64,000 bases of DNA from Candidatus Obscuribacterales bacterium (GTDB taxonomy: Bacteria; Cyanobacteriota; Vampirovibrionia; Obscuribacterales; Obscuribacteraceae). Under the pieces are notes generated by a model. That model worked only from the letters and a program-made list of their open reading frames with translations. It did no database searches and was not told the origin of the DNA. A program made the position numbers and the translations under genes. Each line of letters begins with the position of its first letter. The first letter of the stretch is position 1. Of this stretch, positions 1 through 16,442 are shown piece after piece. The stretch covers positions 73,547-137,546 of the forward strand of contig JAXLXI010000003.1 of assembly GCA_046328035.1 (NCBI GenBank). Reading direction: 5' to 3'.

Positions 1-1
1 C

Positions 2-3000
2 CTCGGAAAGCTCAATAGAAGGAAAGGAAACCTGCAGGCGGCGGAAAAGGCATACCGCACTCAGTTGGATTTGCTGATCAAGTCCAAAGCCACCGCCTCC
101 GAACTGGAAGATCCACTTAAGGAACTGGGCCGGGCACTGGTCGAGTTGGGACGTCTCGGAGAGGCAGAACCTTATTACAACCAGGCTTACGTGAGCATAG
201 CCAACAAAAGACAGGTGCGAAAGAACGTTTTTATTGATGTGGTCATAGAAACCCAGAGCGCAATGGCCACCAGCGTCTATAAAAGCAAGTTTGGCGGCAA
301 TGCCGACGATCTCGCTAAAACCATCGCAGACACCAAAGCCCGACTTGATCCTAATGGCGGTGTTAATTCACGTTCTCTGGCGTACGCTGATTTTTTGGAA
401 TCCGTTGGCTTTGCCTATCCAAACTTTCGCATCAAACGACAGCCCCTGATTCCGTTGCTTGAAGAAGCCATTCAGATCAGACTGCGTGTTGAAGGTCCCG
501 ATACGCCAAGAATTGCCGACGACAAATTCCAAATCGCCGTGCGTCTCGCCAATCTCGGAGGTGATTACACAGCTCCCGCTCTGGACGCATACAAGATTTG
601 GGTGAAATTGCGCGACAGACACGATGTGCGTCTCAAGTCATTTCAGCCTTCCATCCTGCGGCTTGCGTACCTGCTTGCCGGAAATGCCGAGACCAAGTCG
701 CAAGCGCTGGAAATGGCAACTTTAGCCCGCGCGAACCTTGCACCAGATTCGCCGAATGCCGGCCGCGAATGGGGCGGATTCGGACTTCTGTACGAGAATC
801 TAGGAGAATTCGGGCAGGCACGTACCGCTTATGAAAAAGCGAACCTCTGGTTTCAGGCTCACAACGATCCCACAGGCACCGCGCGCACCGCCATTGCTGA
901 TGCACGAATTTGTTATCTCGAACGCGACTACGATGTTGCTTGGCAAAAAGCAAAAGCCGCTGAAGCGATCTGTCAAAAGAACTGGGGAGTTACCCACTAT
1001 CAGGAAAACGTCGCCGGCATGATGTGCCTGGAGACACTGACGGCGATCGCCAGAGCCAGAGGAGATCTGGAAGCGGCCGAACTTTACGCGCGTATGCTGA
1101 CACTGAAAACCAAATGGCTGCAGCAAAACAGCGATATGGCACGCCACTATCTGGCGCTAGCTCAGGTGTTGAGCATGGGCAACGACAAAAGCGAAGCCAC
1201 CAGGTATGCTCAGGACGCAGTCTCAATTCTCTCGAACCTGAGAGAGAAGACCTCATACGATGAGATCGAGTTAGCTAAGGCGCACCTTCTATTGGGTGGT
1301 CTGGCGCTGGCGAAGCAAGATTATAAGCTCGCCGATGCAGAGTACAGACAGGCATTTATTCTCCACGGCACCGATAAGTCCACCGACGGAGTATTGGGAT
1401 TGGTGGCAGACTTGAATGGCATAGCTTTCACCGGCAGCAAGCTCGGCAAGAAACAAGCCGCCATTGAAAATGCGCTGCTCGCCTGCGACAAACTGGACAC
1501 CTACATCAAAACCGGGTTTCCAGAACTTTCCTTTGCTGAACAATGCGCGTTTATCAAATGTGTACGCGATGAGATCAATCCGCTGCTTTCGCTGGGCACT
1601 ACTGGCGATACTACTGCTGAACCATTCAAGTATGTCATGCGCTGGCAAGGTCTACTGATAGATGCGGTCAGGAGACAGACGAGTCTCGAGCGCAGCGGTG
1701 ATCCGCAGACCGTCGCGCAACTGCGGCAAATCAGGCAGGAGCTGTCGCAACTTTCTTCGGGCGCCGCCATGAATAATCAAGCTGCATCTACTGCGGCTGC
1801 GATCCAAACCAAGACCGAAGCGAAGGAGGCATTGGAACGTAAACTAGCTCTCAGCGCCACGGTCACCACTGCCACCACCGATCCGATGCTAACGCTGACT
1901 CCACGTGACTTTGTCAATTCACTGTCAAACGACGAAGCTCTGGTGGACGTACTGCGCTATAAAGACTTGCTCGCTAACAAACCTGCGTATTACGCTTTCG
2001 TAGTTTCGAAGAAAGCCGGTGTCAAAGGATTCCGTCTGGGAGATGCGGATGACATCGAAAAGCTGTCCGCCCAGTGGCTGCAGGCAATGGCATCCAATTC
2101 CGGCAGCACCCGTGACGTGTCGATCTTGGATGAAGATCCCAAATCAACTGAGCCGGCCAAAACTCAGATCGACCTGGATGCCGCTACCGGCACCGTCACA
2201 CAAAAACTGTGGACGCCGATAAAAGCTGCACTGCCTCCCGGCATACGCCGAGTGTGGATTTGCCCGGATTCCCAACTAGCCACTTTGCCGTGGTCCACCA
2301 TGGTGGATTCAGTGGAAAACGGACAGGTACTGACTAGCCAAATCGATAGCCCCAGGGCTTGGTGGCAGCTCAAAGCGCCACACCAGACTCCGGTCGCGCA
2401 AGACTTTCTGCTGATTGGCGGTATTCGGTTCGCCCAACAATCTCTGTTTCTTCCCGGCACCGAATCTGAAGTCGCCGACATTTCGAAACTTGCCGAGCCG
2501 GTGAAACTGCATCTGTCGAAACTGACCGGTGCTGAGCCGACAAAGAACGAAGTTTTGAGACAACTCGGGACGGCAACTTATGCGCACCTTGCTACTCACG
2601 GCTTTTTTGATCAAGGTGACGAAAAAACAATCAGTCAGCAGGCTGCACAAACTGTCGCAGATCAATTGTTGGCGTCGCAGAGAAGCTTCGTGACAGTCTC
2701 TACAGGAGAGGGCGCACTCAACACCACGGCTGTCATGTCCGCACGAAACCCGCTCGTAATGTCAGGCTTGCTCGTAGCACCAGCCCAGGGGTCCAATGTG
2801 AACGCCAACGATCGACTGACGGCCGAAGAACTGGTCGGCCAAGATCTCAGCCACTGTAACCTGGTTGTTCTATCCGCATGCAACACCGGTCGCGGCAAAG
2901 ATTACGAAGGGCAGGGTGTGATGGGGCTGCGCGCCGCACTGATCGGAGCCGGTGCACGCGGAGTGCTGATGTCTCTCTGGCCGGTTGATGATCGCGCAAC

Positions 3001-3169
3001 CAAAGAGTTGATGAAGAACTTCTACCAGAATCTTTGGAACCCAACCAATCCGATGCAACCCGTAGCCGCGTTGAGAGCCGCTCAGAACACCGTCAGGTCG
3101 GCTCCTGGTGGCAAATGGAAGCATCCCTATTATTGGGCAGGCTGGGTCTTCGACGGAGTTGGTTGGTGA
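2..3169 (+). CDS. TPR-repeat / CHAT-domain (caspase-fold) protein, 5'-partial. The reading frame is open to the window edge.
   Basis: ORF 65-3169 has no in-frame stop upstream to position 2. It has N-terminal TPR-like repeats. The C-terminal CHAT signature includes HLATHGFFD and LVVLSACNTGRGKDYEGQGVMGLRAA, which carries the His/Cys dyad context. Confidence 0.8.
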   Translation, partial: LGKLNRRKGNLQAAEKAYRTQLDLLIKSKATASELEDPLKELGRALVELGRLGEAEPYYNQAYVSIANKRQVRKNVFIDVVIETQSAMATSVYKSKFGGNADDLAKTIADTKARLDPNGGVNSRSLAYADFLESVGFAYPNFRIKRQPLIPLLEEAIQIRLRVEGPDTPRIADDKFQIAVRLANLGGDYTAPALDAYKIWVKLRDRHDVRLKSFQPSILRLAYLLAGNAETKSQALEMATLARANLAPDSPNAGREWGGFGLLYENLGEFGQARTAYEKANLWFQAHNDPTGTARTAIADARICYLERDYDVAWQKAKAAEAICQKNWGVTHYQENVAGMMCLETLTAIARARGDLEAAELYARMLTLKTKWLQQNSDMARHYLALAQVLSMGNDKSEATRYAQDAVSILSNLREKTSYDEIELAKAHLLLGGLALAKQDYKLADAEYRQAFILHGTDKSTDGVLGLVADLNGIAFTGSKLGKKQAAIENALLACDKLDTYIKTGFPELSFAEQCAFIKCVRDEINPLLSLGTTGDTTAEPFKYVMRWQGLLIDAVRRQTSLERSGDPQTVAQLRQIRQELSQLSSGAAMNNQAASTAAAIQTKTEAKEALERKLALSATVTTATTDPMLTLTPRDFVNSLSNDEALVDVLRYKDLLANKPAYYAFVVSKKAGVKGFRLGDADDIEKLSAQWLQAMASNSGSTRDVSILDEDPKSTEPAKTQIDLDAATGTVTQKLWTPIKAALPPGIRRVWICPDSQLATLPWSTMVDSVENGQVLTSQIDSPRAWWQLKAPHQTPVAQDFLLIGGIRFAQQSLFLPGTESEVADISKLAEPVKLHLSKLTGAEPTKNEVLRQLGTATYAHLATHGFFDQGDEKTISQQAAQTVADQLLASQRSFVTVSTGEGALNTTAVMSARNPLVMSGLLVAPAQGSNVNANDRLTAEELVGQDLSHCNLVVLSACNTGRGKDYEGQGVMGLRAALIGAGARGVLMSLWPVDDRATKELMKNFYQNLWNPTNPMQPVAALRAAQNTVRSAPGGKWKHPYYWAGWVFDGVGW

Positions 3170-3171
3170 CT

Positions 3172-6100
3172 ATGAAGAAACTGCTACTTCTCTTAGCGGC
3201 GGCACTATCCTGTGCCTGTCAGGTGGATGCCCAGGAATCCAGCAAGAAATTGCAGGACGCCGAAAAGTCCTGCCGAGCGCAAATCGAGCAGCTCACTAAA
3301 AATAAGGCGCCTGAGGCGCAGCTGGCGAAAGCCCTTCATGAGTTAGCGGGAATACTCGTTGAGGAGGGTCGCCCGGCAGAGGCAGAGCCCCTCTACAATC
3401 AGTACAGAGACAACGATGCACTAATTCGCAAAAACATTTTCATAGACATTGCTTTAGAAGCTCAGAACTCCGCCGCACGCGAAACTCACGAAAAAGCTTT
3501 TGGTATCGCACCCGATCTCAGCAAAGTAATGTCCGACAACGGCTCAAAAATGGATCCGAACTCGGTCCAGTACGCCCAGTTTCTGGACGATGTTGCAATT
3601 GCGTATCCATACTTCAAAAACAAGACGCAGCCGGTGATTCCAATCATTGTTCAGGCGATGCAGATCAGACAGAAGCTGGAAGGCAACGATAGCCCGTCCG
3701 TCGCTCAGGAAAAGTTTTTGATCGCACATCGACTGGCGGCGCTGGGTGGTGACTATGTTCCGCCCGCGCTGGAAGGGTATGCAATCTGGAAGAAGTTGAG
3801 CGATGCAAAAGATGCTCGCCTCAAGACACCAGCCGTTCAAGCATCGTTGGTGCGCCTGGCTTACCTCTTGTCCGGCGATGAGAGAACGCGGCAGAAGGGG
3901 GTAGAACTGGCAAATCTGGCTCTTGCCAATTTCAGCGCTCTTGCTCCCAACGGTGACTTATCCGTATCGCCTGTTAACGGTCGCGAAAAGTACGGATTGG
4001 GACTGTTGTTTGAAAATCTCGGAGACTATGCAAAGGCTGAAGCTACCTTCGCGGCGTCTCAAATTTGGTACGCAAACCACAACCAGCCGCAAGACAACAG
4101 AGTGCGAACACTGATTGCCCGAGCCAGAGTGTGTCGCCTGGAAGGTGACTATGATGTAGCTTGGTCGAGAGCCAGAGAAGCAGAAGATCTCTGCAAGAAA
4201 CTTTGGGGGCCGACCTATTATCAGGACAACATGCTCGGCATGAATTGCCTGGAGGTCCTCACGTCGGTCGCCCGATCCAAAGGCGATCTGGCAGCAGCAG
4301 AAAACTATGCGCGGCAGCTGTGTGGGAAATCGAACCTGCGATTGAGCAACAGTCAGGTAGCTAGTCATCAACTGGAACTAGCACAAGTTCTCAGCTTGTC
4401 GAACAACGCCGCTGAGGCGGCATCGGTCGCGCAAAAAGCGGTGACAATTCTCTCCAGCATCATCCAACCAACCTACACCGATCAGTCCGAACTAGCCAAA
4501 GCGCACTTGCTGCTTGCCGGGCTTGCCCTTTCCAAGCAAGACTACAAACTTGCGGACACCGAGTATAACCAGGCATTGAAACTGCATCTCAAAGACACGT
4601 CGAGCGCTGGTGTTCTTGGGCTGGTGGCGGACTACAATGGCATTGCATTCGCTAACAGCAAACTTGGTGCCCAAGCAGTTGCGAATAAAAATGTTTTGGC
4701 CGCCTGCGAGAAGCTGGACGAGTTTGTAAAGTCCGGGTTTCCGAAGCTCTCATTTGCAGGTCAGTGCGCGTTTATCAAGTGCGTAGGCGATCAGATCAAC
4801 GCGCTCCTATCATACGGCTCGGCAACTGAGTCAGCCGACAAGCGATTTGAATATGTTATGCGCTGGCAGGGTCTTTTGATCAACGCTGTCAGACAACATT
4901 CCAACCTGGAACGCAGCGGCGACCCGAACACCGTCGCCGCCCTCAGAAACATCAGGCAAGAGCTTTCAAAACTCTCCGCCGGTGGTGCCGGTCAACAATC
5001 CGATCTGATCGGCATTCAGACCCGGACAGAAATTAAAGAAATGCTCGAACGCAAACTCGCCCTCAAAAATACTGCGACCGGCGAGATCGATCCAACGCTC
5101 ACCAAAACAGCTCGCGAGTTCGCAAGCTCATTGAGCAGCGATGAAGTCGTAGTAGACATGCTCCGCTACAAAGATATGCTCACCAACAAGTCGGCATACT
5201 TCGTCTTTGCAGTTTCTAAGTCAGGTGGTGTCAAGGGATTTCGACTGGGTGATGCCGACGACATAGATAAGGTGTCAACCGATTGGCTTCACGCCATGGC
5301 TTCGAACTCTGGCACCGCCCGCGATGTCTCCATTACCGACGACGACGAGAAACCAAACTCGCCAAACGCTGCCAATGCACCCCGCGTCGATTGCACTGAG
5401 CTGGCAAATGCCGTCGGCAAGAAACTTTGGTTGCCCATCAAAGCAGCAATCCCGGCAAGCGCTCCAAAAGTGTGGATTTGCCCCGACTCAAAACTTGCGA
5501 CCCTGCCCTGGTCTGTTCTCATAGATAACAACGAAGGCGGCCGCATACGCACCTGTCAAATCGACAGTCCGCGCGCCCTGCTGCAATTGCGGGCACCTTA
5601 TAAAGCTCCTCAAGCAAAAGATCTCTTTGTGATCGGCGGCATCGAGTTTGCGCAAAAGGCACTTTTCCTTCCGGGTACAGAATCCGAAGCCAACGAAATC
5701 GCCGCGCTTGCAGAGCCAATGAAGCTTCATGTGTCGAAGTTGACTGGTCTTCAGCCGACCAAGGATGAGGTGCTCAAACACTTGAGCAGTTCCACTTATG
5801 CACACCTTGCCACGCACGGATTCTTCGATCCGGCAGACGACCGAGACAAAACGGTGCCCCTGGTGACATTGCCTGGCGACACAGTGAGGTTCTCCGGCAA
5901 AGATCAGGGCGGCATCGACACGAGAGCTGCAGCCGCCTCGCGCAATCCACTTGTCTTGTCCGGTCTTCTGGTGGCACCAATACCGGACGCACAAAAATTG
6001 GGCGGTGGCCAATTCAAATCCAACTACCTGAACATCATCGCGGGCAGCAACAACGATCGGCTTACCGCTGAGGAGTTGGTTGGCCAGGACTTGAGCCACT

Positions 6101-6414
6101 GCAATCTCGTTGTCTTGTCCGCCTGCAACACCGGTCGCGGCAAAGACTACGAAGGGCAGGGAGTGATGGGACTGCGCGCCGCATTAATCGGTGCCGGAAC
6201 GCGAGGAGTCTTGATGTCACTCTGGTCTGTCGATGACAAGGCCACAAAAGAATTGATGAAGGCGTTCTATCAAAATCTGTGGAATCCCACGAAACCGATG
6301 AAACCAGTCGACGCATTGAAGGCGGCGCAAGAGTCGGTGAAGTCAACCCCCGGTGGCAAGTGGAAGCATCCCTACTACTGGGCGGGTTGGGTCTACGACG
6401 GCGTGGGCTGGTAG
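3172..6414 (+). CDS. TPR-repeat / CHAT-domain protein with a Sec signal peptide. It is a tandem paralog of the upstream gene.
   Basis: The ATG at 3172 (M47 of the ORF) opens MKKLLLLLAAALSCACQVDAQ. The domain order is the same as gene 1 and the C-terminal roughly 120 aa are near-identical to it. Confidence 0.85.
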   Translation: MKKLLLLLAAALSCACQVDAQESSKKLQDAEKSCRAQIEQLTKNKAPEAQLAKALHELAGILVEEGRPAEAEPLYNQYRDNDALIRKNIFIDIALEAQNSAARETHEKAFGIAPDLSKVMSDNGSKMDPNSVQYAQFLDDVAIAYPYFKNKTQPVIPIIVQAMQIRQKLEGNDSPSVAQEKFLIAHRLAALGGDYVPPALEGYAIWKKLSDAKDARLKTPAVQASLVRLAYLLSGDERTRQKGVELANLALANFSALAPNGDLSVSPVNGREKYGLGLLFENLGDYAKAEATFAASQIWYANHNQPQDNRVRTLIARARVCRLEGDYDVAWSRAREAEDLCKKLWGPTYYQDNMLGMNCLEVLTSVARSKGDLAAAENYARQLCGKSNLRLSNSQVASHQLELAQVLSLSNNAAEAASVAQKAVTILSSIIQPTYTDQSELAKAHLLLAGLALSKQDYKLADTEYNQALKLHLKDTSSAGVLGLVADYNGIAFANSKLGAQAVANKNVLAACEKLDEFVKSGFPKLSFAGQCAFIKCVGDQINALLSYGSATESADKRFEYVMRWQGLLINAVRQHSNLERSGDPNTVAALRNIRQELSKLSAGGAGQQSDLIGIQTRTEIKEMLERKLALKNTATGEIDPTLTKTAREFASSLSSDEVVVDMLRYKDMLTNKSAYFVFAVSKSGGVKGFRLGDADDIDKVSTDWLHAMASNSGTARDVSITDDDEKPNSPNAANAPRVDCTELANAVGKKLWLPIKAAIPASAPKVWICPDSKLATLPWSVLIDNNEGGRIRTCQIDSPRALLQLRAPYKAPQAKDLFVIGGIEFAQKALFLPGTESEANEIAALAEPMKLHVSKLTGLQPTKDEVLKHLSSSTYAHLATHGFFDPADDRDKTVPLVTLPGDTVRFSGKDQGGIDTRAAAASRNPLVLSGLLVAPIPDAQKLGGGQFKSNYLNIIAGSNNDRLTAEELVGQDLSHCNLVVLSACNTGRGKDYEGQGVMGLRAALIGAGTRGVLMSLWSVDDKATKELMKAFYQNLWNPTKPMKPVDALKAAQESVKSTPGGKWKHPYYWAGWVYDGVGW

Positions 6415-7257
6415 TTAGCCGGAAATTCTGCGATGTCCAATAAAAACGTGCTTGCCCTGCAGGGACTCTACTAGTCCCATAAAATCGGCCAGTGTGGTTT
6501 GCGGATCTTGATCCGGATTGAGCGCGACCGCAAGTCCTGCGAGATCGCCGTAGGAGCTGTTTCCTTCCTGAGCTTTCTCAATGATCGCCGCCGCCACATG
6601 TCCCACGGACAAGAAACGAATCTCTTTGTCCTCAGGATCTCGATAAACAAGGACAATACTCGGCTCCGCCTTCACGTCTACCGGCAACTCATCCGACTCT
6701 TCTTCCAGCTTCTCGGCGATGGCGATGAGATCGAACTGATACCGCCGAATAAGCAGAGCCGGGTTGACCAGAGGTTTGAATCCCGCGAACTCCTCAGCCG
6801 ATTGCAGCAGGCACGTATCGGATTGATAATCGAATTCCGTATCATCGAAATCAATCATGTCGCTTTCGGAAAACTCGTAATCGACCAGGTCCGTCAAGTA
6901 AGGAAACTTTTCCTTCACCTGTTCGTTCAAATGTTTTTCGATGAATGTCTTGAAGTGTTCGCCGGCGCGACTGGATCTGTAGCTGGTCGGCGGGCAGATG
7001 TTGCGATAGTCTTCCACGATTTCGTCCCAGTCTTCTCCTAACAGTTTTTCCGTCAGAGGAAAAGTCATGCTCATCGTTTCGTAGTGTTTGACTTGCAAAA
7101 CTTGAACGTAGATCATCAGCCGTTCTTTATCGATTTGAGCGGCGATCTCGGGACCAATGTCCGAGAAGTCGCCTGCCAAGAATCGCTCCAATGCGTCGCG
7201 ATTGGTCCATAATTTGGTCATTGCCTTTTCGACTTCGGAGAGCGTGGTACCAGGCAT
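6415..7257 (-). CDS. DUF2063-like partner protein of the DUF692/MNIO enzyme (MbnC/BufC/HvfC-type)
   Basis: It lies 4 nt downstream of the DUF692 gene on the same strand. It is 280 aa with an N-terminal region compatible with DUF2063. The call rests mainly on the conserved gene pairing. Confidence 0.55.
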   Translation of the reverse strand: MPGTTLSEVEKAMTKLWTNRDALERFLAGDFSDIGPEIAAQIDKERLMIYVQVLQVKHYETMSMTFPLTEKLLGEDWDEIVEDYRNICPPTSYRSSRAGEHFKTFIEKHLNEQVKEKFPYLTDLVDYEFSESDMIDFDDTEFDYQSDTCLLQSAEEFAGFKPLVNPALLIRRYQFDLIAIAEKLEEESDELPVDVKAEPSIVLVYRDPEDKEIRFLSVGHVAAAIIEKAQEGNSSYGDLAGLAVALNPDQDPQTTLADFMGLVESLQGKHVFIGHRRISG

Positions 7258-7261
7258 AGTT

Positions 7262-8179
7262 TTATCCGCGTACCCGGTGTGACGTCTTCGCCTGATTCGC
7301 CTGAGACTTGCTGTCGAGCCAGCCTGGTTGTGCTGCTTTGACTACAGCTCGAATATCGTCCAGCTCTGCCAGTAACTCAGAAAACTCATCGGGAAAATGC
7401 TGATCGCGCTCGAGGAGAATCGCGTTGACTGGAACCCGTTCCATCACATACTTAAGCAGATCCAGAACCGGTCTTGGAGGTGTGGCACCATGCGTATCCA
7501 CATAGGCATCGAATTCGGGAGCATGGTGGTGACCGGCTATGTGAATTTGTACGGTGCGCTCAAGCGGAATCTGATCCATAAATTCGATAGGATCGAACTT
7601 GTGATTGAGCGAATTGACATACACATTGTTGATATCGAGCAGAAGCCCGCAATCGGCTTGCTCCAACACTTCAGAAAGAAACTGAGCTTCATCCAGCTCG
7701 CTGCCGGGCATACGCATGTAGTACGTGATGTTTTCGAGAAGAAACGGAATGTCCGTCATCTCCTGGACTTTCTTCGCGCGTGTCACGCAATGCGCAACGG
7801 CTTCGCGTGAGAACGGCAGCGGCAGCAACTCGTGCGTTTGCACGCCGCCAAAGGCGCTGAAACAAAGATGGTCGCTCCACCAAGGAGCATCGATATGCTT
7901 CAGGAGTTTCTTCAGAGACCGGATGTAGTCCTGGTCTATTTCGTCGGTGCTCCCGAGAGACAGTCCGACCCCGTGCGCGATTAGAGGGAACACCTTTAAA
8001 GCCCTGTCCAAGCGGGCTCGCGATTTTCCGCCCAGTCCCATGAATTGCTCGGAGATTATTTCCAGCCAGTCGATCTGCTCGGCGTGCTCGAAGGTTTCGT
8101 CTTCCACTTCGTTGCGCAGCCCCATGCCGACACCCAGTATCGGCAATTGCTTTTTCACATCGAGAAACTTAGACGTCAT
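7262..8179 (-). CDS. DUF692 / UPF0276 family TIM-barrel protein (MNIO, MbnB/BufB/HvfB-like)
   Basis: The N-terminal LGVGMGLR motif is typical of UPF0276. The protein is about 305 aa. The motifs HLCFS, IHIAGHHHAPEFD and DTHG provide His/Asp/Glu metal-ligand candidates. Its start overlaps the upstream stop as TAATG. Confidence 0.8.
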   Translation of the reverse strand: MTSKFLDVKKQLPILGVGMGLRNEVEDETFEHAEQIDWLEIISEQFMGLGGKSRARLDRALKVFPLIAHGVGLSLGSTDEIDQDYIRSLKKLLKHIDAPWWSDHLCFSAFGGVQTHELLPLPFSREAVAHCVTRAKKVQEMTDIPFLLENITYYMRMPGSELDEAQFLSEVLEQADCGLLLDINNVYVNSLNHKFDPIEFMDQIPLERTVQIHIAGHHHAPEFDAYVDTHGATPPRPVLDLLKYVMERVPVNAILLERDQHFPDEFSELLAELDDIRAVVKAAQPGWLDSKSQANQAKTSHRVRG

Positions 8180-9570
8180 TATTTAGCCTTGCGCTTGCTT
8201 ACGGGAAGTCCACAATCAGCGGGATTGGAATCACCGGCGTACGACCAGTCAGGTCGCACAAATTTTGTGTCGGCGCAATAAATTGCCATGCCGGCCATCG
8301 AGTCTTGCGGCTGCGCCGTCGGATTGACGTAAGTCGCTTCCAGCTCGTAATGCTTGCCCCCTATCAAAGGAATACCTTCGCTGGAACTCAGCGTGTCGAT
8401 GTGCAAAATCTGCAGCGGCTTTTCCTGCGTTCGCGCCTTGACCAAGATCACTTCTTTGCGCGCTTTACCGTTGCACTCGACCAGCGCAAATTTTTCACAA
8501 TAAGGATGCACGTGAGCCATGACCAGATGAACGCGTCTGTTCACCGCGGAGAAATCGGCATTGGCAGGCGATGTGATGGTGCTGACGGGACTTGTGTAAG
8601 TGTGAGTACCGGGTGGCACCACCCAGTGCCCGATTTGTTTGCGCCCCAGCTCATCACTGAAGATCATGCTTCGCATGCTGCTCGGTGCCGGCACGCCATC
8701 AGACATCAAAGAGCAGTCCGGGCACATGTTGTGTTCTTCCTGTGCCGCCTCCGGCGAATTGCGATCGATCACCACATTGATCACCGGGTAGTACCAGAAT
8801 AGAGCTTTGATTGGATAAACAAGTTCCGAATCGCGGACGAATGAAAGTATGCAGCGTTGTTTCACACGCCGGGGCTTGTCGCTGTCTCTATTGATTGCTT
8901 GAAAAATGAATCGCCAGGTCTCGTCGCTGGCCACCGGCAATCCATAGCCGCGAGGAAAGGTGAATTCGGTCTGCCCCTGCGAGAGGACGATGTGGCGCAT
9001 GCTTCCTGGTTGTTCGCTCTCAGGAAACACCTGGCTGCGGAAATCTAGATCGACATCAATGGTCGAGTGGCAGAAAAATTCGTCGGTAGGTAAAACCTGA
9101 TCGTTTTCGTCCAGGACTTCCAGCTTGATCGACTTCAGCCAGAGCAACTCTCTGCCTTTTGTGCGCGAGGCTTTCAGCCCGATCACACCTGCATCCGTTA
9201 CATCGGACTTCGCCCCTTTGGCACTGCCGGACATAGCAGGTGCCGGTTTTGAACAACCTTCAACGAATTGTACAAGGGCTTCTGGAATTTGAATCTGCTT
9301 CGACGCAATCAGATCGGCAATGCGCAGCGGCTCGCGCACATAGGGACCTTCCATGGATCGATATTTTTTGTGCAGGTCGAAAGGACCGATAGTAATTTCG
9401 ACGGTGCTCAGCGGTCCTTCCGTTTGCTGACTATCGCGTTGGACAGGCAGCGCTGTACTTACTAGAGAATCAAACCCTGCGCCCATTGCGGGCAACTTGA
9501 GCTGGTTGGCAAATAAACTACCAACCAGACACAACGTTGCTAGCACGGACGCAGGGCTAAATTTTCTCAT
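8179..9570 (-). CDS. Secreted 463-aa protein of unknown family, co-operonic with the MNIO genes
   Basis: The N-terminal signal peptide is MRKFSPASVLATLCLVGSLFA. It contains several Cys/His clusters, including HVHPYCEKFALVECNG and MCPDCS. I could assign no domain. It is translationally coupled to the DUF692 gene. Confidence 0.6.
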   Translation of the reverse strand: MRKFSPASVLATLCLVGSLFANQLKLPAMGAGFDSLVSTALPVQRDSQQTEGPLSTVEITIGPFDLHKKYRSMEGPYVREPLRIADLIASKQIQIPEALVQFVEGCSKPAPAMSGSAKGAKSDVTDAGVIGLKASRTKGRELLWLKSIKLEVLDENDQVLPTDEFFCHSTIDVDLDFRSQVFPESEQPGSMRHIVLSQGQTEFTFPRGYGLPVASDETWRFIFQAINRDSDKPRRVKQRCILSFVRDSELVYPIKALFWYYPVINVVIDRNSPEAAQEEHNMCPDCSLMSDGVPAPSSMRSMIFSDELGRKQIGHWVVPPGTHTYTSPVSTITSPANADFSAVNRRVHLVMAHVHPYCEKFALVECNGKARKEVILVKARTQEKPLQILHIDTLSSSEGIPLIGGKHYELEATYVNPTAQPQDSMAGMAIYCADTKFVRPDWSYAGDSNPADCGLPVSKRKAK

Positions 9571-9585
9571 TGAACCTGAGGCTGA

Positions 9586-9930
9586 CTACTTGGTTTCAGC
9601 TTCCTTTTTGGCATCTTCGGCCGGTTTGGATTCGCCGGCTTTGTCGGTCTTGCCATGCTTCTTGGCGTTGCCGTAGTGGCATCCGCACGGATATGTGCAA
9701 CCGCCGCCTCTGTTTTTGCCAGGACCTTTTTTCTTGCCGGCAGGCTTGGCTTCTTCTTTCTTGGTGTCGTCTTTCTTATCGGTGTCGGCCAGGTTGGTTC
9801 CCTTTTCAGCGATTGCCATTCCGGTCGATTTGGCTGCTACTGCCGGTTGACCTGAGCTGACCAGAACACCAGAGCTGACGCTGATCGCTGCGAGCAATAC
9901 CGTCAAATCGGTCTTGTTCAATTTTTCCAT
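9586..9930 (-). CDS. Putative RiPP precursor peptide. It is Sec-secreted, Lys/Glu-rich and carries a single CTYPCGCHYG core motif.
   Basis: The ATG at 9930 is preceded by GGAGG at a 5-nt spacing. The ORF-track start at 9942 is a TTG. The signal peptide is MEKLNKTDLTVLLAAISVSSGVLVSSGQPAVAA. The remainder has three Cys in a 7-residue window. It sits 15 nt upstream of the next gene. Confidence 0.65.
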   Translation of the reverse strand: MEKLNKTDLTVLLAAISVSSGVLVSSGQPAVAAKSTGMAIAEKGTNLADTDKKDDTKKEEAKPAGKKKGPGKNRGGGCTYPCGCHYGNAKKHGKTDKAGESKPAEDAKKEAETK

Positions 9931-10046
9931 TCTGTCCTCCAATTCCTATAACTCAGGGAAGGTTACTTCCCTTATGGCGGGCCAAAACAGATTATCGTCG
10001 GCAGATAACGATTTGCCCATATGTTTCTACAAAAAATTCCTTGGCT

Positions 10047-12164
10047 TTATCTAATGACAAGCCTGAGAGTCGTCGTGGTCCACTCGTCAAGCGAGTTGCT
10101 GTCTTCCTCGCTGACGCCCAGATCGCGGGTGTTGTGACCACCGACGCTGCGGCGGAAAAGTTCTTCCAGCGCCGTACCGGGACCGGACGGAGCAGCACGG
10201 CTGACGCCAGACTGTCCAAGTATGGTGAAATCAGCCGGCTTGGTTGTGACGATAAATTTGAGGGTCTCCACTCCCAGGGGCGGCTTGATGCTAAGCAAGC
10301 GCTTCTGTGCCGGCCACCGGAAAGTACCTTTAGGAGGCAGCGGATATTTGGCATTGTCCGGCGGATAGAGCACAGCGATGCTGCCGCTGGTCTCAATTGC
10401 CAAAATAGCGATGTAGATATTTTCGTCCGTGGTGTTGGTCAACTTGAGTCGCAACTTGTCCCCCACGTGCACGGTGGGCACAAGTTGATTTCCTGGAACG
10501 GGATCTTCTTTGAAGGTCGGCTCGCCCCATTCGTCTTTACCAAGTGGGGTAACTTTCAGCACTTCGATCTTCAGAGCGCCCTTGAGAGGCGAGACTTGAT
10601 TATCGAGAGCCAACACGCGCTGCTGTCGAGCTCCCTTTTCCAGAGCGCTGGCTATGGTGTCGGCAGCGTGTGGATCGTTTTCATCCACCCAGACATCAAA
10701 GAGCGGCGCACCATCCTTAGTGGCAATGAAGTAACCGTTGCCTTTGGCGTCACGAGTGCCGGCGGAACTTTTCTCCTGCTGGAAGTTATTGTATGTGTCC
10801 TTCACGACAGACATGTCCCAGCCGCCGGCGTCGCGTGTTTTGAACGGATCAGCGGTTTTGCTGGCAATTTTGACCAGTTTGGGGTCGACCGAATCAGTCA
10901 GGCCCTTGGTGAACTGCTGCCAGCTGGCTGAGTTCGTTTCTCCAGGAACGGCATTGAATGCTGTCACATTGAGCGGACCGGCGCCGAAGTGCGGCGTGAC
11001 GATTTTGGCTTTGGCCGACTTCAACGCTTCCTGATCAACGCCTGCCGGTCTTTCGATGGTGGCACTGAGTGCATTGCAATCTTTGGCGCTGGCGACACCC
11101 AACAAATCTTTGTTGCCGCGCAGCTGAGTTGCTTCCTTTTTATAGAACGCCACCAGCGTGCCTGGATCGATCCCCTGCAGAGAACCGGCGGCAATGGTGA
11201 TGCTCTTGTCGGTGACTTCCGAAACTGGAATGTACGGATCGGCTCGATCGGTTGCATCGCCGAATATGAAACGGTCGATGTCGCCTTCGATTTGCGGATG
11301 CTGATTGGAACGGTTGCCCGTCACTCCCGTTGCCACCGCTCCCCACAAGTCGCGATATGTAGTACCGGCGTTCGCCTGCTCAAGCGCATCAATCAAGTTT
11401 ATTGTCAGAAGTCCATTGGCACGGTCACCCTGCGGAGTATCGGTGTCGGACTCGCCGGCAGTCTCGTTGGGCAAGCATCCCGCCATTGACACATAAGTAG
11501 CCGGTGGAGCGCTTTTGGCGTCCTTTGGTTTTTGTGGAGGTTGCGGTCTGTCATCAGTCTCGGCCTTGCGCAGTCTCACACTCACGGTCGCGTCTCGAAC
11601 ATTGGAGCCGGAGTGGCAGCAATCAGTGATTATGGTGATGTTTTTCGTATATTGACCGAGCTGGTTGATCAGGTCTTCCAGATCGTCGTCGGTAAGGTCG
11701 TAGTGATCAGGCTGGCGAGAATCTACCGGCACGAGAGTTTCATCCATACCGTCCTCCTCATCGCCGTTCATGTCGGGCACCTGAGAGCCATGCCCGCTGT
11801 AATGAAACACACAGATGGCATTCGGATTTGCTTTGGCATTCTCAATCAATTGAGCCTTGAACGCATCAACGATGGCTTGTCTGGTTGCCTGGCGCGAGAG
11901 CAAGACTTTTATATGTTTGTCGTCATCAGGAAACCCGAAGCGTGTCGTGAGAAGCTTGCGCATGTCCTTCGCATCGTTTTCACAACCATCCAGCTTTTCC
12001 AGGCGTTTGGAGATGTAGTCATCAATGCCAATCAAAAGGGCAAACTTGTTTTGATTGCCCGGCTGCTGGGGAGCGTCAGCTGCGGCAGCCATACGAATCG
12101 GTCCGAGTACCGCCACCAGCATCACGCAAAGTGCCACCACTGGAGAGATCAGATGTCGTTTCAT
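10047..12164 (-). CDS. Secreted peptidase C14 (caspase/metacaspase-fold) domain protein with a roughly 450-aa C-terminal extension of unknown function
   Basis: It has a signal peptide. Caspase signatures present are FALLIGIDDY, HYSGHGSQ and DCCHSG. Confidence 0.8.
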   Translation of the reverse strand: MKRHLISPVVALCVMLVAVLGPIRMAAAADAPQQPGNQNKFALLIGIDDYISKRLEKLDGCENDAKDMRKLLTTRFGFPDDDKHIKVLLSRQATRQAIVDAFKAQLIENAKANPNAICVFHYSGHGSQVPDMNGDEEDGMDETLVPVDSRQPDHYDLTDDDLEDLINQLGQYTKNITIITDCCHSGSNVRDATVSVRLRKAETDDRPQPPQKPKDAKSAPPATYVSMAGCLPNETAGESDTDTPQGDRANGLLTINLIDALEQANAGTTYRDLWGAVATGVTGNRSNQHPQIEGDIDRFIFGDATDRADPYIPVSEVTDKSITIAAGSLQGIDPGTLVAFYKKEATQLRGNKDLLGVASAKDCNALSATIERPAGVDQEALKSAKAKIVTPHFGAGPLNVTAFNAVPGETNSASWQQFTKGLTDSVDPKLVKIASKTADPFKTRDAGGWDMSVVKDTYNNFQQEKSSAGTRDAKGNGYFIATKDGAPLFDVWVDENDPHAADTIASALEKGARQQRVLALDNQVSPLKGALKIEVLKVTPLGKDEWGEPTFKEDPVPGNQLVPTVHVGDKLRLKLTNTTDENIYIAILAIETSGSIAVLYPPDNAKYPLPPKGTFRWPAQKRLLSIKPPLGVETLKFIVTTKPADFTILGQSGVSRAAPSGPGTALEELFRRSVGGHNTRDLGVSEEDSNSLDEWTTTTLRLVIR

Positions 12165-12203
12165 AGCTCGATTCCTTCATCCTGTTGGATGGCGTTGACT
12201 GAC

Positions 12204-13136
12204 TTAGGGCGATGGGTCTGAGGGTTTTGCAAAAAGCACGGCATCGCTGCCGCTCCACCGGCTGTAGTTCACCGTGGGATGCTGTTCGTGCATGCGCAGC
12301 CTGGCTGCCATAATCACTTGCTGGCGTGTTTCCTCAAAAGCAGTCTTGAGTTTTCCGTCGTATTTGGCCAGGTTTTCCAAAAGATAGTGAGTGAAAAGCC
12401 CGCTCTCGTTAAAATCGTCATCTACAGATGTTTCATTGGCAGAGCAGGCGGTGACAGCAATCTGTCCGGCACCGATGACGTCGGTGGTCGCTGCGGCGTC
12501 TCTGGTTTTGACGTTGCCGGAAAAACAGGTATCAACGATGATGACGACTCGATCTGAGGGGAGCGATTGTTTGATCATGCGACCCAGCTCTTGCATGCTC
12601 AATCCCGTGCTCTTCGGATTTCGATCGTCGAAGTCGTAGGTGAGAATGTAATTTTCGCCGTTCTTGTCCGAGAATGACGTGCTGCCGTGGCTGGAGAAGT
12701 ACACGACCACCAGGTCGTCGGGGCGTACGACGTTTTTCAGCCAACCCGAGCCCAGGTAATAACGAATTTTTTCGCCAGTGGCTTGCGAGTTCAACAAGAC
12801 TTTCACGTGGCTGGGGGCAAATCCGGCTTTGTAAATCAGGAAATTGCGCACGTCGACGGCATCCTTGACGCTGAACGTGAGCGAGTCGGCGCGAGCCGGG
12901 AGAACCAGGCGAGGAGTAGTGGACGTGCCTTTCTCGATGTGAGCGCCGAGCAAATCGACTGTGGGAAACTCGCTAACTCCAATCAGCAATGCCCACTTAT
13001 CGGTGACCGGGCGATCGACAGAAGCGGCTGCCGGAGCGGCTGCCTCAGTTTTTTCCGACGCTGCGCGCACCGGTCCGAGGGTGGGCACGAGCAGTGCTGC
13101 CAGCAAAAGGTAGAAGCGCAATTTCGAAAACGACAT
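12204..13136 (-). CDS. Secreted caspase-like (peptidase C14 fold) protein
   Basis: WALLIGVSEF, YFSSHGS and VDTCFSG provide the His/Cys dyad context. The signal peptide is MSFSKLRFYLLLAALLVPTLG. The ATG at 13136 is preferred over the GTG at 13163. Confidence 0.7.
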   Translation of the reverse strand: MSFSKLRFYLLLAALLVPTLGPVRAASEKTEAAAPAAASVDRPVTDKWALLIGVSEFPTVDLLGAHIEKGTSTTPRLVLPARADSLTFSVKDAVDVRNFLIYKAGFAPSHVKVLLNSQATGEKIRYYLGSGWLKNVVRPDDLVVVYFSSHGSTSFSDKNGENYILTYDFDDRNPKSTGLSMQELGRMIKQSLPSDRVVIIVDTCFSGNVKTRDAAATTDVIGAGQIAVTACSANETSVDDDFNESGLFTHYLLENLAKYDGKLKTAFEETRQQVIMAARLRMHEQHPTVNYSRWSGSDAVLFAKPSDPSP

Positions 13137-13223
13137 AGTTGTATGCCTGGGTTGATCGTGCACATATTAAGACGAAATGCGAAAATGACGCGAGGTTGTG
13201 AACAATTTCTCGTCTGCCGGAGT

Positions 13224-14312
13224 ATGGAAAGACCGATGCTATCTAACAAATTCACTCGGTTCGGGAAAATTGTGCCGGCAGCATTGGCCCTGTTATTCAC
13301 CATAGCGACTTGCCAAGCGCAGGGATCTCAAGATGCCAAAACGGCAAGCACGCTGAAGCGAATGGCATTTTCCAGCGCCGACCAAAATTTGCCTGTGACT
13401 GCACTGCAGGGCAAATGGCGGGCGACCAGATCGATTGAATCGGAAGCGATTCAGAGAGCAAGAGAGAAGATCAATAAAGGAAACTGGGAAGCTGCCATCG
13501 TTGATTTGAACGAAGCGTTGAAAGCCGACCCCAAGAACGTCACCGCTTTGACCTGGCGCGGATTTGCTCGACTGAAACTAAACGAAACCAACTACGCGCT
13601 TGCTGACCTCAGCGAGGCGCTCAAGTACGACGATGAGAATGCCGATGCCTTGACATTTCGAGGCTGGACCAAAACCAGCATGGGTGATGCCGATGGAGGC
13701 ACTGAAGACTGCACCCACGCCATCAAGCTGCACCAGAATGCACAGGCGTTCTACATTCGCGGCAAAGGACACTCGATGTCCAACAATGCCATAGCAGCAG
13801 TGTTGGACGAAGACAAAGCTTTGAAGTTGGACCCGAACCTCGCCGATGCCTGGCAAATCAAAGGGCAGTGCCGGCTGACTCTGGGCGATGCAGCCGTGGC
13901 GATCAGTGACTTCAGCGAAGCAATTAAAAAAGATCCCAGCCCACGCTATTACCTGGACAGAGCACGAGCTTATTTGCTTTGCGATCAATTCGACAAGGCG
14001 TTGCCTGACCTGACCAAGGCAGCGGAAGGCATGCCGAATTCACCGGTGGCTTACATGTTTCGCGCGCTGGCTTATTTGGGACTGAAAAACGTTCCTAAAG
14101 CGCTGGAGGATGCACAGCATTCCGTCGAGCTTGCGCCCGATTCTCCAAGGGCACATCGCATTCTGGCTTATGCACTCGAAGATAGCGGTGATATCACCGG
14201 TGCCACCGCCGAATACGACAAGGCTTCCAAACTCTACTCGTCCGACGACGATCAAGAAGACATGCAGAGCTGCGTAAAACGTCTGAAGAGTGCCACCGCT
14301 GCGACGGAGTAG
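13224..14312 (+). CDS. Secreted TPR-repeat protein
   Basis: The signal peptide is MLSNKFTRFGKIVPAALALLFTIATCQA. It has multiple 34-aa TPR-like repeats, for example AxxDxxEALK. The long upstream ORF extension runs antisense to the caspase gene and was rejected. Confidence 0.7.
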   Translation: MERPMLSNKFTRFGKIVPAALALLFTIATCQAQGSQDAKTASTLKRMAFSSADQNLPVTALQGKWRATRSIESEAIQRAREKINKGNWEAAIVDLNEALKADPKNVTALTWRGFARLKLNETNYALADLSEALKYDDENADALTFRGWTKTSMGDADGGTEDCTHAIKLHQNAQAFYIRGKGHSMSNNAIAAVLDEDKALKLDPNLADAWQIKGQCRLTLGDAAVAISDFSEAIKKDPSPRYYLDRARAYLLCDQFDKALPDLTKAAEGMPNSPVAYMFRALAYLGLKNVPKALEDAQHSVELAPDSPRAHRILAYALEDSGDITGATAEYDKASKLYSSDDDQEDMQSCVKRLKSATAATE

Positions 14313-14322
14313 CGATCGGGGT

Positions 14323-15069
14323 CTACAGACCGAGTAGCGTGCGCAGCGTGGACGGAACAGACACAGGCTTGTTGATTTCGACCTGTCCCTGGCTGAGTCC
14401 GGTTTGCCGTACCAGTTGTTCATATTGATGTCTGGCATGCGGATCGGGGACATCTTCCATGTTCATGCGCACCAGGTGAAATTGCAGGAGTTCATCGCCG
14501 CGCTTGATAGTCAGATCCACGGCTTGCCCTTCGACGCCGCAGCTAAAAACCCAGGTCGGAATTGAGGGATCTTTGATGCCCGCGTCCTCTGCTTCCTCTT
14601 CGTCCACAATGATCAGGTCGCCCAATCTAATTCCCGCCTTTTCAGCCGGACATCCGGGAATCAGCACCGTGATTTTTGCGAACTGCGTGAAGTAGGTGCG
14701 ATCGCTGTCGTATCCGAGGACACCAATGCCGAGGTCGCGGTAGTCTTCGGAGGTAAGTTTGGCGCGCAGCGCCAGTTTCTTCAATGCCGCTTCGCGCCTC
14801 GCGGCTCGATCGGCAGGGCTGGCCGGTTGCGTTTGCAATGTTCCAGCATCCGTAGAAGATGCTGAACCGAGCGCATCCCCTTTTTCAACTGCGCCCTTCA
14901 AGGTCGGCGTTGCGGCGGGCGCATCCTCCGCGGCAGTTTGCGTATCGACGGCAGCTTCTTGCTTTTGCAGGGACGGCAAATCTCCAGCGAACGCAGCAGG
15001 CGCAAATTGCGCGCTCAGCAGCATTGGCATCAGTAGCTGGACCAGAAACCGGTTCTTTTCGCTTGTCAT
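14323..15069 (-). CDS. Secreted PDZ-domain protein
   Basis: It has a signal peptide. The PDZ-like segment is GIGVLGYDSD...GIRLGDLIIV. Confidence 0.6.
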   Translation of the reverse strand: MTSEKNRFLVQLLMPMLLSAQFAPAAFAGDLPSLQKQEAAVDTQTAAEDAPAATPTLKGAVEKGDALGSASSTDAGTLQTQPASPADRAARREAALKKLALRAKLTSEDYRDLGIGVLGYDSDRTYFTQFAKITVLIPGCPAEKAGIRLGDLIIVDEEEAEDAGIKDPSIPTWVFSCGVEGQAVDLTIKRGDELLQFHLVRMNMEDVPDPHARHQYEQLVRQTGLSQGQVEINKPVSVPSTLRTLLGL

Positions 15070-15333
15070 CACGACGTCCTACAACAAGGGTAATGACCTG
15101 AGCGAGGCCGATATTAGGGGAGTTGTACCCGCCGAAAAGTTTAAATTCAGCACACCTGCCACCATGGAGTGACTGACACCCGAAGCAATGCAATGTATTC
15201 AGTCATCTCTTCGGTTGATACCGCCAATGGTGTCAGCCCATGGTGCGACTCCTCTTCTTCAGCACCATATTCCTTCAGTCGGGACGTCGAGCATCATCTA
15301 CACGACAATCTACCGGCTCCGCGTGCCGATATA

Positions 15334-15642
15334 ATGAGTGTCTCGGCGAGGAGGCACCGTTCGACAGTGAACTTCGACACCATTATTCCGGTGGGAGGGC
15401 TCGTCCTCTCGATCGTGCTGACGCTGTACGGCGTTATGGGACTGCAAACCGGTGAGGTCACCGGTCAGAGTATGGCGTTTTACACCAAGCAGACCTACAC
15501 CGGAAAGAATGCGTCCATGCTCTCCATTGCCTGGATAGTCTGCGGATTGCTGGGCACTGTGGCTTTTGGCGGTCACCTGGCGGGTTTCAGACCTGCCTCC
15601 CCGCTCTATAACTTCTTCATGGACATGCTCAAATCAGGCTGA
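15334..15642 (+). CDS. Small two-TM membrane protein, hypothetical
   Basis: The ORF contains hydrophobic helices. The start was chosen at an internal ATG. Confidence 0.3.
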   Translation: MSVSARRHRSTVNFDTIIPVGGLVLSIVLTLYGVMGLQTGEVTGQSMAFYTKQTYTGKNASMLSIAWIVCGLLGTVAFGGHLAGFRPASPLYNFFMDMLKSG

Positions 15643-15782
15643 AGCAGCCAATGCTGAGACAGGACTAATCAGCCGGAGCCTGCTCAGTGCTGCTTTTACG
15701 AAAGACGGCTTGGGTCGTCTTGGGGTACTATTTTGCCTGGCAATCCCCGTCCCTGCCTTGGTTGGAGGCAAGGGAAGTGAAC

Positions 15783-16442
15783 ATGCAGCAAACCACGACG
15801 AGTGGGCAAACGACACAGCGTCCCGATGAGGACATTCGTGTTCCTACAGTTAAGGAACATCTGCTGCGCGTTTTCGGGCATAAACGGGGCGAATCTTTAT
15901 ATGGGTCCGAGGGCGACAAGCTTGCCGCGCAGTACCCGCAAAAAAAGTGGAACTGGGTGCTCGGATATGACGAGCCGATACCCCTGTTTTTGGAACAGAG
16001 TCGGCAAAATCAGGCTAAAGCTTACTGCGTGCTAATCGGAGCAGCTCTGATCACGGTCTTTATGCTCTCCAGTTTTGTGAGGTCCGCCAATAACGAAAGC
16101 GGCTATAACCCATCGGGTGAACTGTCTCCGGCAGAACGCCTGTTGATGAACACCGCCCAACAGTCGTTGGGTGTATCGGACAAAGCGATGCGCGATTACT
16201 ATGCACCACCGGTGGAGCAGGCACCACCTCCGCCTGAACAAACGTCGGCGACTGAGCAGCAGGCGCCACCACAACAGCACCACCCGCCGTCGATGCGCAC
16301 CTTCGGGTTGCGCGCGCAGCAGCAAGCGCAAATGCAACAACAGCAATATGGCGGCGAAATGCCTATGCAGCAGCAACAGCAGTATGGAATGCCGGCGCAA
16401 CAAGGTCAACCCCAGCGGTTCCAAGTCTACGTGTCTCGCTGA
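15783..16442 (+). CDS. Hypothetical membrane protein with a Gln/Pro-rich low-complexity C-terminus
   Basis: GGAGG lies before the ATG at 15783. There is one TM segment. The tail has QQQ..., MQQQQYG and similar repeats. Confidence 0.5.
   Translation: MQQTTTSGQTTQRPDEDIRVPTVKEHLLRVFGHKRGESLYGSEGDKLAAQYPQKKWNWVLGYDEPIPLFLEQSRQNQAKAYCVLIGAALITVFMLSSFVRSANNESGYNPSGELSPAERLLMNTAQQSLGVSDKAMRDYYAPPVEQAPPPPEQTSATEQQAPPQQHHPPSMRTFGLRAQQQAQMQQQQYGGEMPMQQQQQYGMPAQQGQPQRFQVYVSR

Follow-up and report, generated by a model that had tools for sequence, protein, structure and literature searches.

Four caspase-fold protease genes around an MNIO peptide cassette in Obscuribacteraceae: a probable stand-alone exported module

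Do protease genes that flank a peptide-modification operon belong to it, or are they only its neighbours? The question is raised by the genome of a soil bacterium of the Obscuribacteraceae (Melainabacteria/Vampirovibrionia; placed by its U463 protein), from which a stretch of 64,000 nucleotides (contig JAXLXI010000003.1), here called the window, was analysed. Two genes for TPR-CHAT proteins (CHAT1 and CHAT2) and two for C14 peptidases (C14L and C14S) lie on either side of an operon resembling those for peptides made by the ribosome and then modified after translation (RiPPs). This operon, the cassette, encodes a precursor, the exported protein U463, an MNIO enzyme and a DUF2063 partner. The original prediction left open whether the proteases mature the precursor or act independently, and it was right to do so. 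The reading preferred here, with a probability of roughly 0.6, is that the proteases are a stand-alone exported C14/TPR-CHAT module and the RiPP cassette is a lineage-specific neighbour. We infer the independence of the proteases from the domains, motifs, export signals, gene order and distribution described below.

A gene map was drawn from the open reading frame (ORF) listing and Pfam scans of the window (Table 1). Pfam domains, His/Cys motifs and geometry confirmed that four caspase-fold proteases bracket the cassette, and no further C14 or CHAT paralogue was found in the other 51 kb of the window. The CHAT domain PF12770 scored 179 bits in CHAT1 and 171 bits in CHAT2 against a cutoff of 24, and both proteins have an N-terminal TPR array in which TPR_12 is above cutoff. 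The motifs LATHGF and LSACNTG, at 2588-2605 and 2870-2890 in CHAT1 and at 5806-5823 and 6115-6135 in CHAT2, were assigned as the His and Cys motifs by resemblance; no solved homologue aligns by sequence. For the C14 domain PF00656 the scores were 106.1 bits (C14L) and 60.5 bits (C14S) against a cutoff of 21.4. In C14L the motifs YSGHGS and DCCHSG align to the His/Cys of the yeast metacaspase Yca1, the GDEEDGMDE loop (the metacaspase Ca/S1-loop motif) is conserved with Yca1, and H125 and C183 are invariant in 30/30 homologues. C14S carries FSSHGS at 12681-12698 and DTCFSG at 12516-12533. An AlphaFold2 model of C14L (predicted local distance difference test score 79.4) had as its top Foldseek matches GSU0716 (6.7e-14), AtMC9, AtMC4 and Yca1, and on this model C14L has the caspase/hemoglobinase fold.

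Signal-peptide-like N-termini were seen on all four proteases, on U463, on the precursor and on the TPR protein divergent from C14S; that of CHAT2 reads MKKLLLLLAAALSCACQVDAQ. The original prediction had allowed signal peptides to most of the proteases. Their presence stands and 'most' becomes all four: the window's left border truncates the 5' end of CHAT1, the frame being open from base 2 (tblastn), and the full-length protein in the near-identical locus L002 has 1317 residues and its own signal peptide. To judge from their sequences, the four genes encode Sec-exported clan-CD cysteine proteases that are probably active. They add new members to known protease families, in an arrangement of modest interest.

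The arrangement itself was as predicted. The tandem plus-strand TPR-CHAT genes converge on the cassette with 0 nucleotides (nt) between the stop codons of CHAT2 (6412-6414) and of the DUF2063 gene (6415-6417), and transcripts of both strands must therefore overlap at their 3' ends. The corresponding convergent genes overlap by 22 nt in locus L149 (8712-8733). The C14 genes, expected upstream of the precursor on the same strand with gaps of about 39 and 115 nt, were found there with C14L 39 nt downstream of C14S, with which it is probably co-transcribed, and with 116 nt from C14L to the precursor ATG at 9930, which is preceded by the Shine-Dalgarno sequence GGAGGA, or 104 nt to a TTG at 9942. 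The junctions of the cassette (precursor/U463/MNIO/DUF2063) measure 15 nt, a 1-nt overlap and 4 nt, and the cassette is therefore taken to be a tight four-gene operon.

The relatives of the cassette give the first part of the answer. It is complete (MNIO, DUF2063 and precursor) in only two, L002 and L003, of the 79 genome loci with a U463 homologue; L002 (MAG_AAO_H10.39) has the gene order of the window at 92-100% identity. The closest relatives of U463 and C14L were added to these, namely L136, L137 and L149 (73-92% identity) and L138-L143 (58-61% identity). In L002, L149, L136 and L137 (73-100% identity) the C14 pair, the divergent TPR gene and CHAT genes adjoin the cassette, though in two different orders. 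In the window, L002 and L149 the divergent TPR gene and C14S are followed by C14L, precursor, U463, MNIO and DUF2063, the last facing a converging CHAT gene. In L136 and L137 the precursor, U463, MNIO and DUF2063 genes come before the TPR gene, C14S and C14L, and a TPR-CHAT gene on either strand follows. Identities between these genomes are 82-87% for C14S, 77-78% for C14L, 70-73% for the TPR protein and 69-75% for the cassette enzymes. C14S in L136 and L137 is always directly upstream of C14L, the TPR gene keeps its divergent position in L136, L137 and L149 (orthologues 70-73% identical) and it accompanies the C14 pair in all relatives. The TPR/C14S/C14L block, at 70-87% identity, stays intact while the cassette shifts from downstream of C14L to upstream of the TPR gene, which favours an independent module. 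At least one outer flank differs as well: the genes to the left of the L137 cassette have no homologue in the window or L002.

Outside these lineages the association was not seen. In the sister clade (L003 and L138-L143; 58-61%) tblastn and profile hidden Markov models (HMMs) detected neither C14 nor CHAT genes within 5-10 kb in any of the seven loci, and their precursors share the core R-G-(G)-C-[NT]-Y-P-C-G-C-H-Y-G with those of L136, L137 and L149. That this clade combines U463 and the same core with a lack of C14/CHAT genes argues for independence, and so does the Arg just before the first core Cys, which is equally conserved in this clade without caspases. A metagenome scan with the MNIO enzyme added 55 loci (29-63% identity), in which a DUF2063 partner accompanies (GKEGSCK)n precursors of an oxazolin-like type. 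The profile-HMM search, which took in every ORF of 146 loci (1.82 Mb), detected C14/CHAT genes in 0/55 of these MNIO-relative loci (433 kb of flanks, 16 loci having at least 3 kb on both sides), again in favour of an independent module. The synteny named as a check in the original prediction is therefore divided: adjacency is kept in the four lineages, all at 73% identity or more, but is absent from the seven sister-clade loci and from the 55 MNIO-relative loci, so that proteases, precursor and modifying enzymes do not co-occur across lineages.

The relatives of the proteases give the second part. The identity of C14L homologues falls from 92% and 77% directly to 36% (Acidobacteria), and outside the clade it is 31-36%. 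Three of the four contexts in which these homologues lie (L144/L145, L146, L147 and L148) are C14/TPR-CHAT arrays and none of the four contains an MNIO gene. In L144/L145 (Pyrinomonadaceae) TPR-CHAT, TPR-CHAT, C14-DUF4384, C14, CHAT and TPR-CHAT genes follow each other on one strand (L144 129-18157) and 6/6 of these caspase-fold genes carry signal peptides. In L147 a C14-DUF4384 gene has as neighbours a TPR-CHAT gene and a further C14-DUF4384 protein; the order in L148 is TPR-CHAT, small gene, C14, C14; and L146 has a single C14 gene and no array. Given three of four outside contexts with arrays and without MNIO, the exported C14 plus TPR-CHAT arrangement recurs independently of the RiPP cassette, and this too favours an independent module. 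Outside these contexts, the clade and six loci with U463 paralogues (C14 only), no C14 or CHAT gene was found in the 146 loci. A description of such an array neighbourhood was not found in the literature searched. The recurrence of exported C14-DUF4384 plus TPR-CHAT arrays across phyla is a by-product of this analysis, and they could represent an undescribed extracytoplasmic protease cascade.

The spacer between C14L and the precursor points the same way. Its ATCTGCC..CGA element recurs upstream of the precursor in L136 and L137, whose precursor has no C14 gene before it. The cassette thus took at least some of its own 5' region along when it moved. Tight gaps inside the cassette, as against 116 nt to C14L containing sequence that belongs upstream of the precursor, favour an independent module. 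No direct or inverted repeats flanking the cassette were found, the CHAT duplication being the sole repeat, and mobile-element boundaries for the cassette were consequently dropped.

A survey of MNIO enzymes covering about 14,000 clusters lists DUF2063, DoxX, sigma-70 and NrsF as the usual neighbours, and the words caspase and peptidase are absent from its text (PMC12452194). No occurrence of C14 or CHAT was met in its supplements, the text of which may be incomplete (PMC12452194). Most MNIO precursors carry Sec signal peptides (PMC12452194). Sec-exported MNIO precursors would need no leader protease, and Sec-type MNIO products such as bufferins are not known to need a dedicated one (PMC12452194, PMC11626156).

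On the preferred reading C14S, C14L, the two TPR-CHAT enzymes and the divergent exported TPR protein would form a self-standing extracytoplasmic protease module, comparable to modules of one or two C14 proteins (one with DUF4384) plus TPR-CHAT, with signal peptides, in Acidobacteria and other soil bacteria. C14S and C14L would be made from one transcript, exported, and cleave periplasmic or extracellular proteins after Arg or Lys, while recognition of substrates or partners may fall to the TPR protein and to the CHAT enzymes' TPR arms. The RiPP cassette would be a separate, packed operon acquired as a neighbour in one subclade of Obscuribacteraceae only, where it occupies two positions. RiPP production would then proceed without the proteases, with signal peptidase removing the signal peptide of the precursor on export.

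Several observations weigh against this reading and count instead for a role in maturation, in which C14L and/or C14S, as lineage-specific proteases, would trim the exported, MNIO-modified and possibly U463-modified peptide in the periplasm by cutting at the Lys/Arg residues that flank the CxYPCGCHYG core, with the TPR and TPR-CHAT proteins helping or regulating and the caspase genes being accessory to the cluster. In four lineages cassette and proteases have stayed adjacent through a rearrangement and a change of at least one outer flank, the pattern to be expected of selection for linkage. All the products, precursor and U463 included, are predicted to be exported and would meet in the same compartment. 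C14L and the precursor are on the same strand and no terminator was recognised in the 116 nt between them, so read-through is possible. Further, two other sets of loci have C14S-like genes close to U463 paralogues, one or two genes away. Lys and Arg make up 22 of the precursor's 114 residues, KNR and KK adjoin the core, C14L has metacaspase-type motifs including the Ca/S1-loop motif, and orthocaspases cleave after basic residues (PMC6426788, PMC8283722). Set against maturation are the absence of the proteases both from the sister clade, whose core is almost identical, and from every other MNIO relative, the existence of a like protease module without MNIO in other phyla, the Arg before the core that is conserved whether or not caspases are present, the apparent lack of need for a dedicated protease among Sec-type MNIO products noted above, and the lack of any mention of a caspase-family leader protease in a review of RiPP proteases (PMC10885120). 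Maturation is on this evidence unlikely. The narrower proposal that exported C14L and C14S, possibly with the TPR-CHAT enzymes, were recruited in this subclade to trim the Lys/Arg-rich flanks of a peptide modified by the MNIO and a PHM-like enzyme is unlikely too.

The proteases might alternatively serve in conflict or programmed cell death, in the manner of NTP (nucleoside triphosphate)-dependent conflict systems or of Craspase, the RiPP cassette being irrelevant. In its favour, PADLOC's generic 'caspase' model picks up C14L and C14S, the EACC1-associated caspase model gives a weak match, and the CHAT proteins evolve very fast, as in an arms race. The match to the EACC1-associated model (NF047832) is however only 46.8 and 71.4 bits against a cutoff of 140, CHAT1, CHAT2 and the TPR protein have no PADLOC match, and no NTPase, CRISPR, sensor or effector-associated domain was found nearby by Pfam or PADLOC. 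A defence-system assignment was rejected, the generic caspase model being all that PADLOC yields. The known caspase and CHAT defence effectors are, to our knowledge, cytoplasmic, whereas all four proteins here carry signal peptides and would lie outside the cytoplasm. A defence role in the cytoplasm is unlikely in view of these signal peptides and of the missing matches to defence systems, and the conflict reading as a whole is quite improbable. Chance alone could also have brought four functionally unrelated protease genes together, for soil bacteria commonly carry C14 and CHAT genes and CHAT1/CHAT2 could be no more than a recent duplication. This is very improbable given that C14 and TPR-CHAT genes are co-located in 3/4 unrelated contexts of C14L homologues and in all four lineages of this clade, whereas elsewhere in the 146 loci, bar the six U463-paralogue loci, neither C14 nor CHAT genes were found.

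CHAT1 and CHAT2 are tandem duplicates with 57% identity. Apart from CHAT1, the best relatives of CHAT2 in a search of 5.8 billion proteins had only 23-28% identity, so that orthologues outside the species, sought in the same search, were given up. Between the genomes compared the CHAT proteins are only 28-45% identical, as against 70-87% for neighbouring genes of the same genomes: CHAT1/CHAT2 diverge much faster than their neighbours.

Transcription across the gap between C14L and the precursor was considered from sequence scans and folding. A scan found the weak promoter-like site of Table 1 and no terminator-like site on the minus strand of the gap. The original prediction had pointed to a possible terminator at 9955-9970. 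A hairpin does exist at this place (9971-9956, GGGAAG-UAAC-CUUCCC), 25 nt upstream of the precursor start codon, but it lacks a uridine tract and the gap region folds no better than shuffled sequence (z = -0.85), and the intrinsic terminator was therefore discarded. A regulatory RNA in the gap was discarded too, with no Rfam family matching in positions 1-16000 of the window and the same result of folding. The hairpin is missing from L136 and L137; in L149 (about 5150-5170) a single compensatory change, GAGAAG/CUUCUC, preserves its pairing. Read-through from C14L into the precursor, on the same strand and with no terminator found, is possible.

Comparison with known systems places the proteases among familiar families. 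The orthocaspases and metacaspase-like C14 proteins (Microcystis MaOC1, Geobacter GSU0716, yeast Yca1) have the same C14 domain above the Pfam threshold and the His/Cys motifs, and the C14L model superposes on GSU0716 and metacaspases. Cyanobacterial orthocaspases are known to have DUF4384 as an accessory domain (PMC8283722). Unlike the known orthocaspases, C14L and C14S have predicted cleavable Sec-type signal peptides and are paired beside TPR-CHAT genes, and their host is a non-photosynthetic Melainabacterium. Csx29 of Craspase (type III-E CRISPR) shares with CHAT1 and CHAT2 a TPR arm followed by a C-terminal CHAT domain with putative His/Cys motifs. Craspase is associated with type III-E CRISPR-Cas, and no Cas7-11 or cas gene is among the neighbours in the window; unlike Csx29, moreover, CHAT1 and CHAT2 have signal peptides, which would make them extracytoplasmic, and lack a sequence-level match to any solved structure and a PADLOC match.

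The cassette shares with the bufferin and oxazolin clusters (bufABC, hvfABC) the order of a Sec-signal Cys precursor, MNIO and DUF2063 partner, and its likeness to the oxazolin type (HvfA) lies in the (GKEGSCK)n precursors of the nearest MNIO relatives (PMC12452194). It differs from both in the exported PHM-like U463 between precursor and MNIO, in the core CxYPCGCHYG and in an MNIO and partner that score below the cutoffs of the NCBIfam models BufB (271 bits against 310), HvfB (260 against 360) and HvfC (67.6 against 142). Protease neighbours are an undescribed feature for such clusters. An exported protease gene beside a RiPP operon is likewise seen with the secreted second-step proteases CylA and LicP, but unlike RiPP maturation proteases those described here fail to co-occur with the precursor outside one subclade. 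Clan-CD enzymes mature plant cyclic peptides, and C14S has a weak match to C13, the family of the plant asparaginyl endopeptidases (clan CD). No bacterial C14 or CHAT RiPP protease is described in a review (PMC10885120).

The main value of the present evidence is thus negative, in that adjacency at this locus should not be read as cluster membership. If the proteases were shown to process the peptide they would be a new protease family for RiPP biosynthesis and the first bacterial caspase-family RiPP maturation system, and bacterial orthocaspases would gain a defined substrate, which they largely lack.

A second by-product is the pairing within the cassette of an exported protein of PHM/DBH-like fold, U463, with a new precursor. 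The precursor of the window is Lys-rich with the core GGGCTYPCGCHYGN, and its family has a Sec signal peptide, Lys/Glu/Thr-rich flanks and a new core motif, CxYPCGCHYG. The family differs from the oxazolin-like (GKEGSCK)n type found with the nearest MNIO relatives. A U463 orthologue adjoins the precursor in every recovered locus. The residues H353-x-H355 and M425 of U463 are invariant, with a spacing that presumably matches the CuM site of PHM, and the HH..H site is not conserved. A sequence-level relation to PHM was sought and not found, the likeness being in the modelled fold only. U463 as a PHM-like protein is accordingly a lead, and among the genes of the region it is the unusual one. Its homologues number about 236. 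Most come from Melainabacteria, where a genome has several paralogues, and fusions to cyclophilin are frequent.

Table 1. Coordinates of the genes of the window and of related genes in other loci
Feature	Sequence	Coordinates	Strand	Evidence or remark
CHAT1	window	2-3169 (ORF 65-3169)	+	Pfam CHAT PF12770 1.5e-52 plus TPR
CHAT2	window	3172-6414	+	Pfam CHAT 3.9e-50 plus TPR
DUF2063/HvfC-like MNIO partner, last cassette gene	window	6415-7257	-	Pfam DUF2063 + NGO1945_C
MNIO (MbnB/TglH/ChrH family) enzyme	window	7262-8179	-	Pfam PF05114 1e-91
U463, predicted exported, 463 residues, no family match	window	8179-9570	-	PHM/DBH-like two-domain beta-sandwich fold
Precursor, 114 residues, Sec signal peptide	window	9586-9930	-	sequence
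C14L-precursor spacer, 116 nt	window	9931-10046	-	weak promoter-like site 10019-9991; hairpin 9971-9956
C14L, predicted exported, 705 residues	window	10047-12164	-	Pfam Peptidase_C14 2.9e-30 plus C-terminal DUF4384
C14S, predicted exported, 310 residues	window	12204-13136	-	Pfam Peptidase_C14 2.6e-16, weak C13
TPR protein, predicted exported, divergent from C14S	window	13236-14312	+	Pfam TPR families
Precursor orthologue	L003	7594-7917		
Precursor orthologue	L136	650-1021		
Precursor orthologue	L137	5194-5541		
Precursor orthologue	L138	4799-5122		
Precursor orthologue	L139	7780-8109		
C14S-like gene near U463 paralogue	L015	12576-14858		TPR-fused
C14S-like gene near U463 paralogue	L019	6563-8857		
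C14S-like gene near U463 paralogue	L026	6515-8491		
C14S-like gene near U463 paralogue	L031	6351-7931		
C14S-like gene near U463 paralogue	L033	1-621		
C14S-like gene near U463 paralogue	L043	8444-9325		

The six C14S-like genes of Table 1 encode exported C14 proteins (34-42% identity). They belong to two further orthologous sets of Melainabacteria loci, in which each is separated from a U463 paralogue by a distance of one or two genes and of no more than about 3 kb. The fusion of C14 to TPR in L015 was considered as a Rosetta-stone link between C14S and the TPR protein and was rejected, for the two have different types of TPR and tblastn gave no match.

In the sister clade the usual order is RND pump, response regulator, fasciclin, precursor, fused MNIO-DUF2063 and U463, the fusion being one protein of 610-626 residues in L003 and L139-L143 (e.g. 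L139 2582-11461). The upstream RND efflux pump, response regulator and fasciclin genes of these same loci hint at a context of metal or envelope stress. A gene for a TPR-prolyl-oligopeptidase (S9) converges on the cassette in L139, L140 and L143. It was weighed as a possible counterpart of the proteases and set aside, since it lacks a signal peptide and is an ordinary conserved neighbour in that clade. L138 has the precursor and U463 (4799-6583) with no MNIO or DUF2063 gene within about 5 kb upstream and 10 kb downstream. This suggests that the precursor-U463 pair is the conserved core and that the MNIO may be dispensable or encoded elsewhere.

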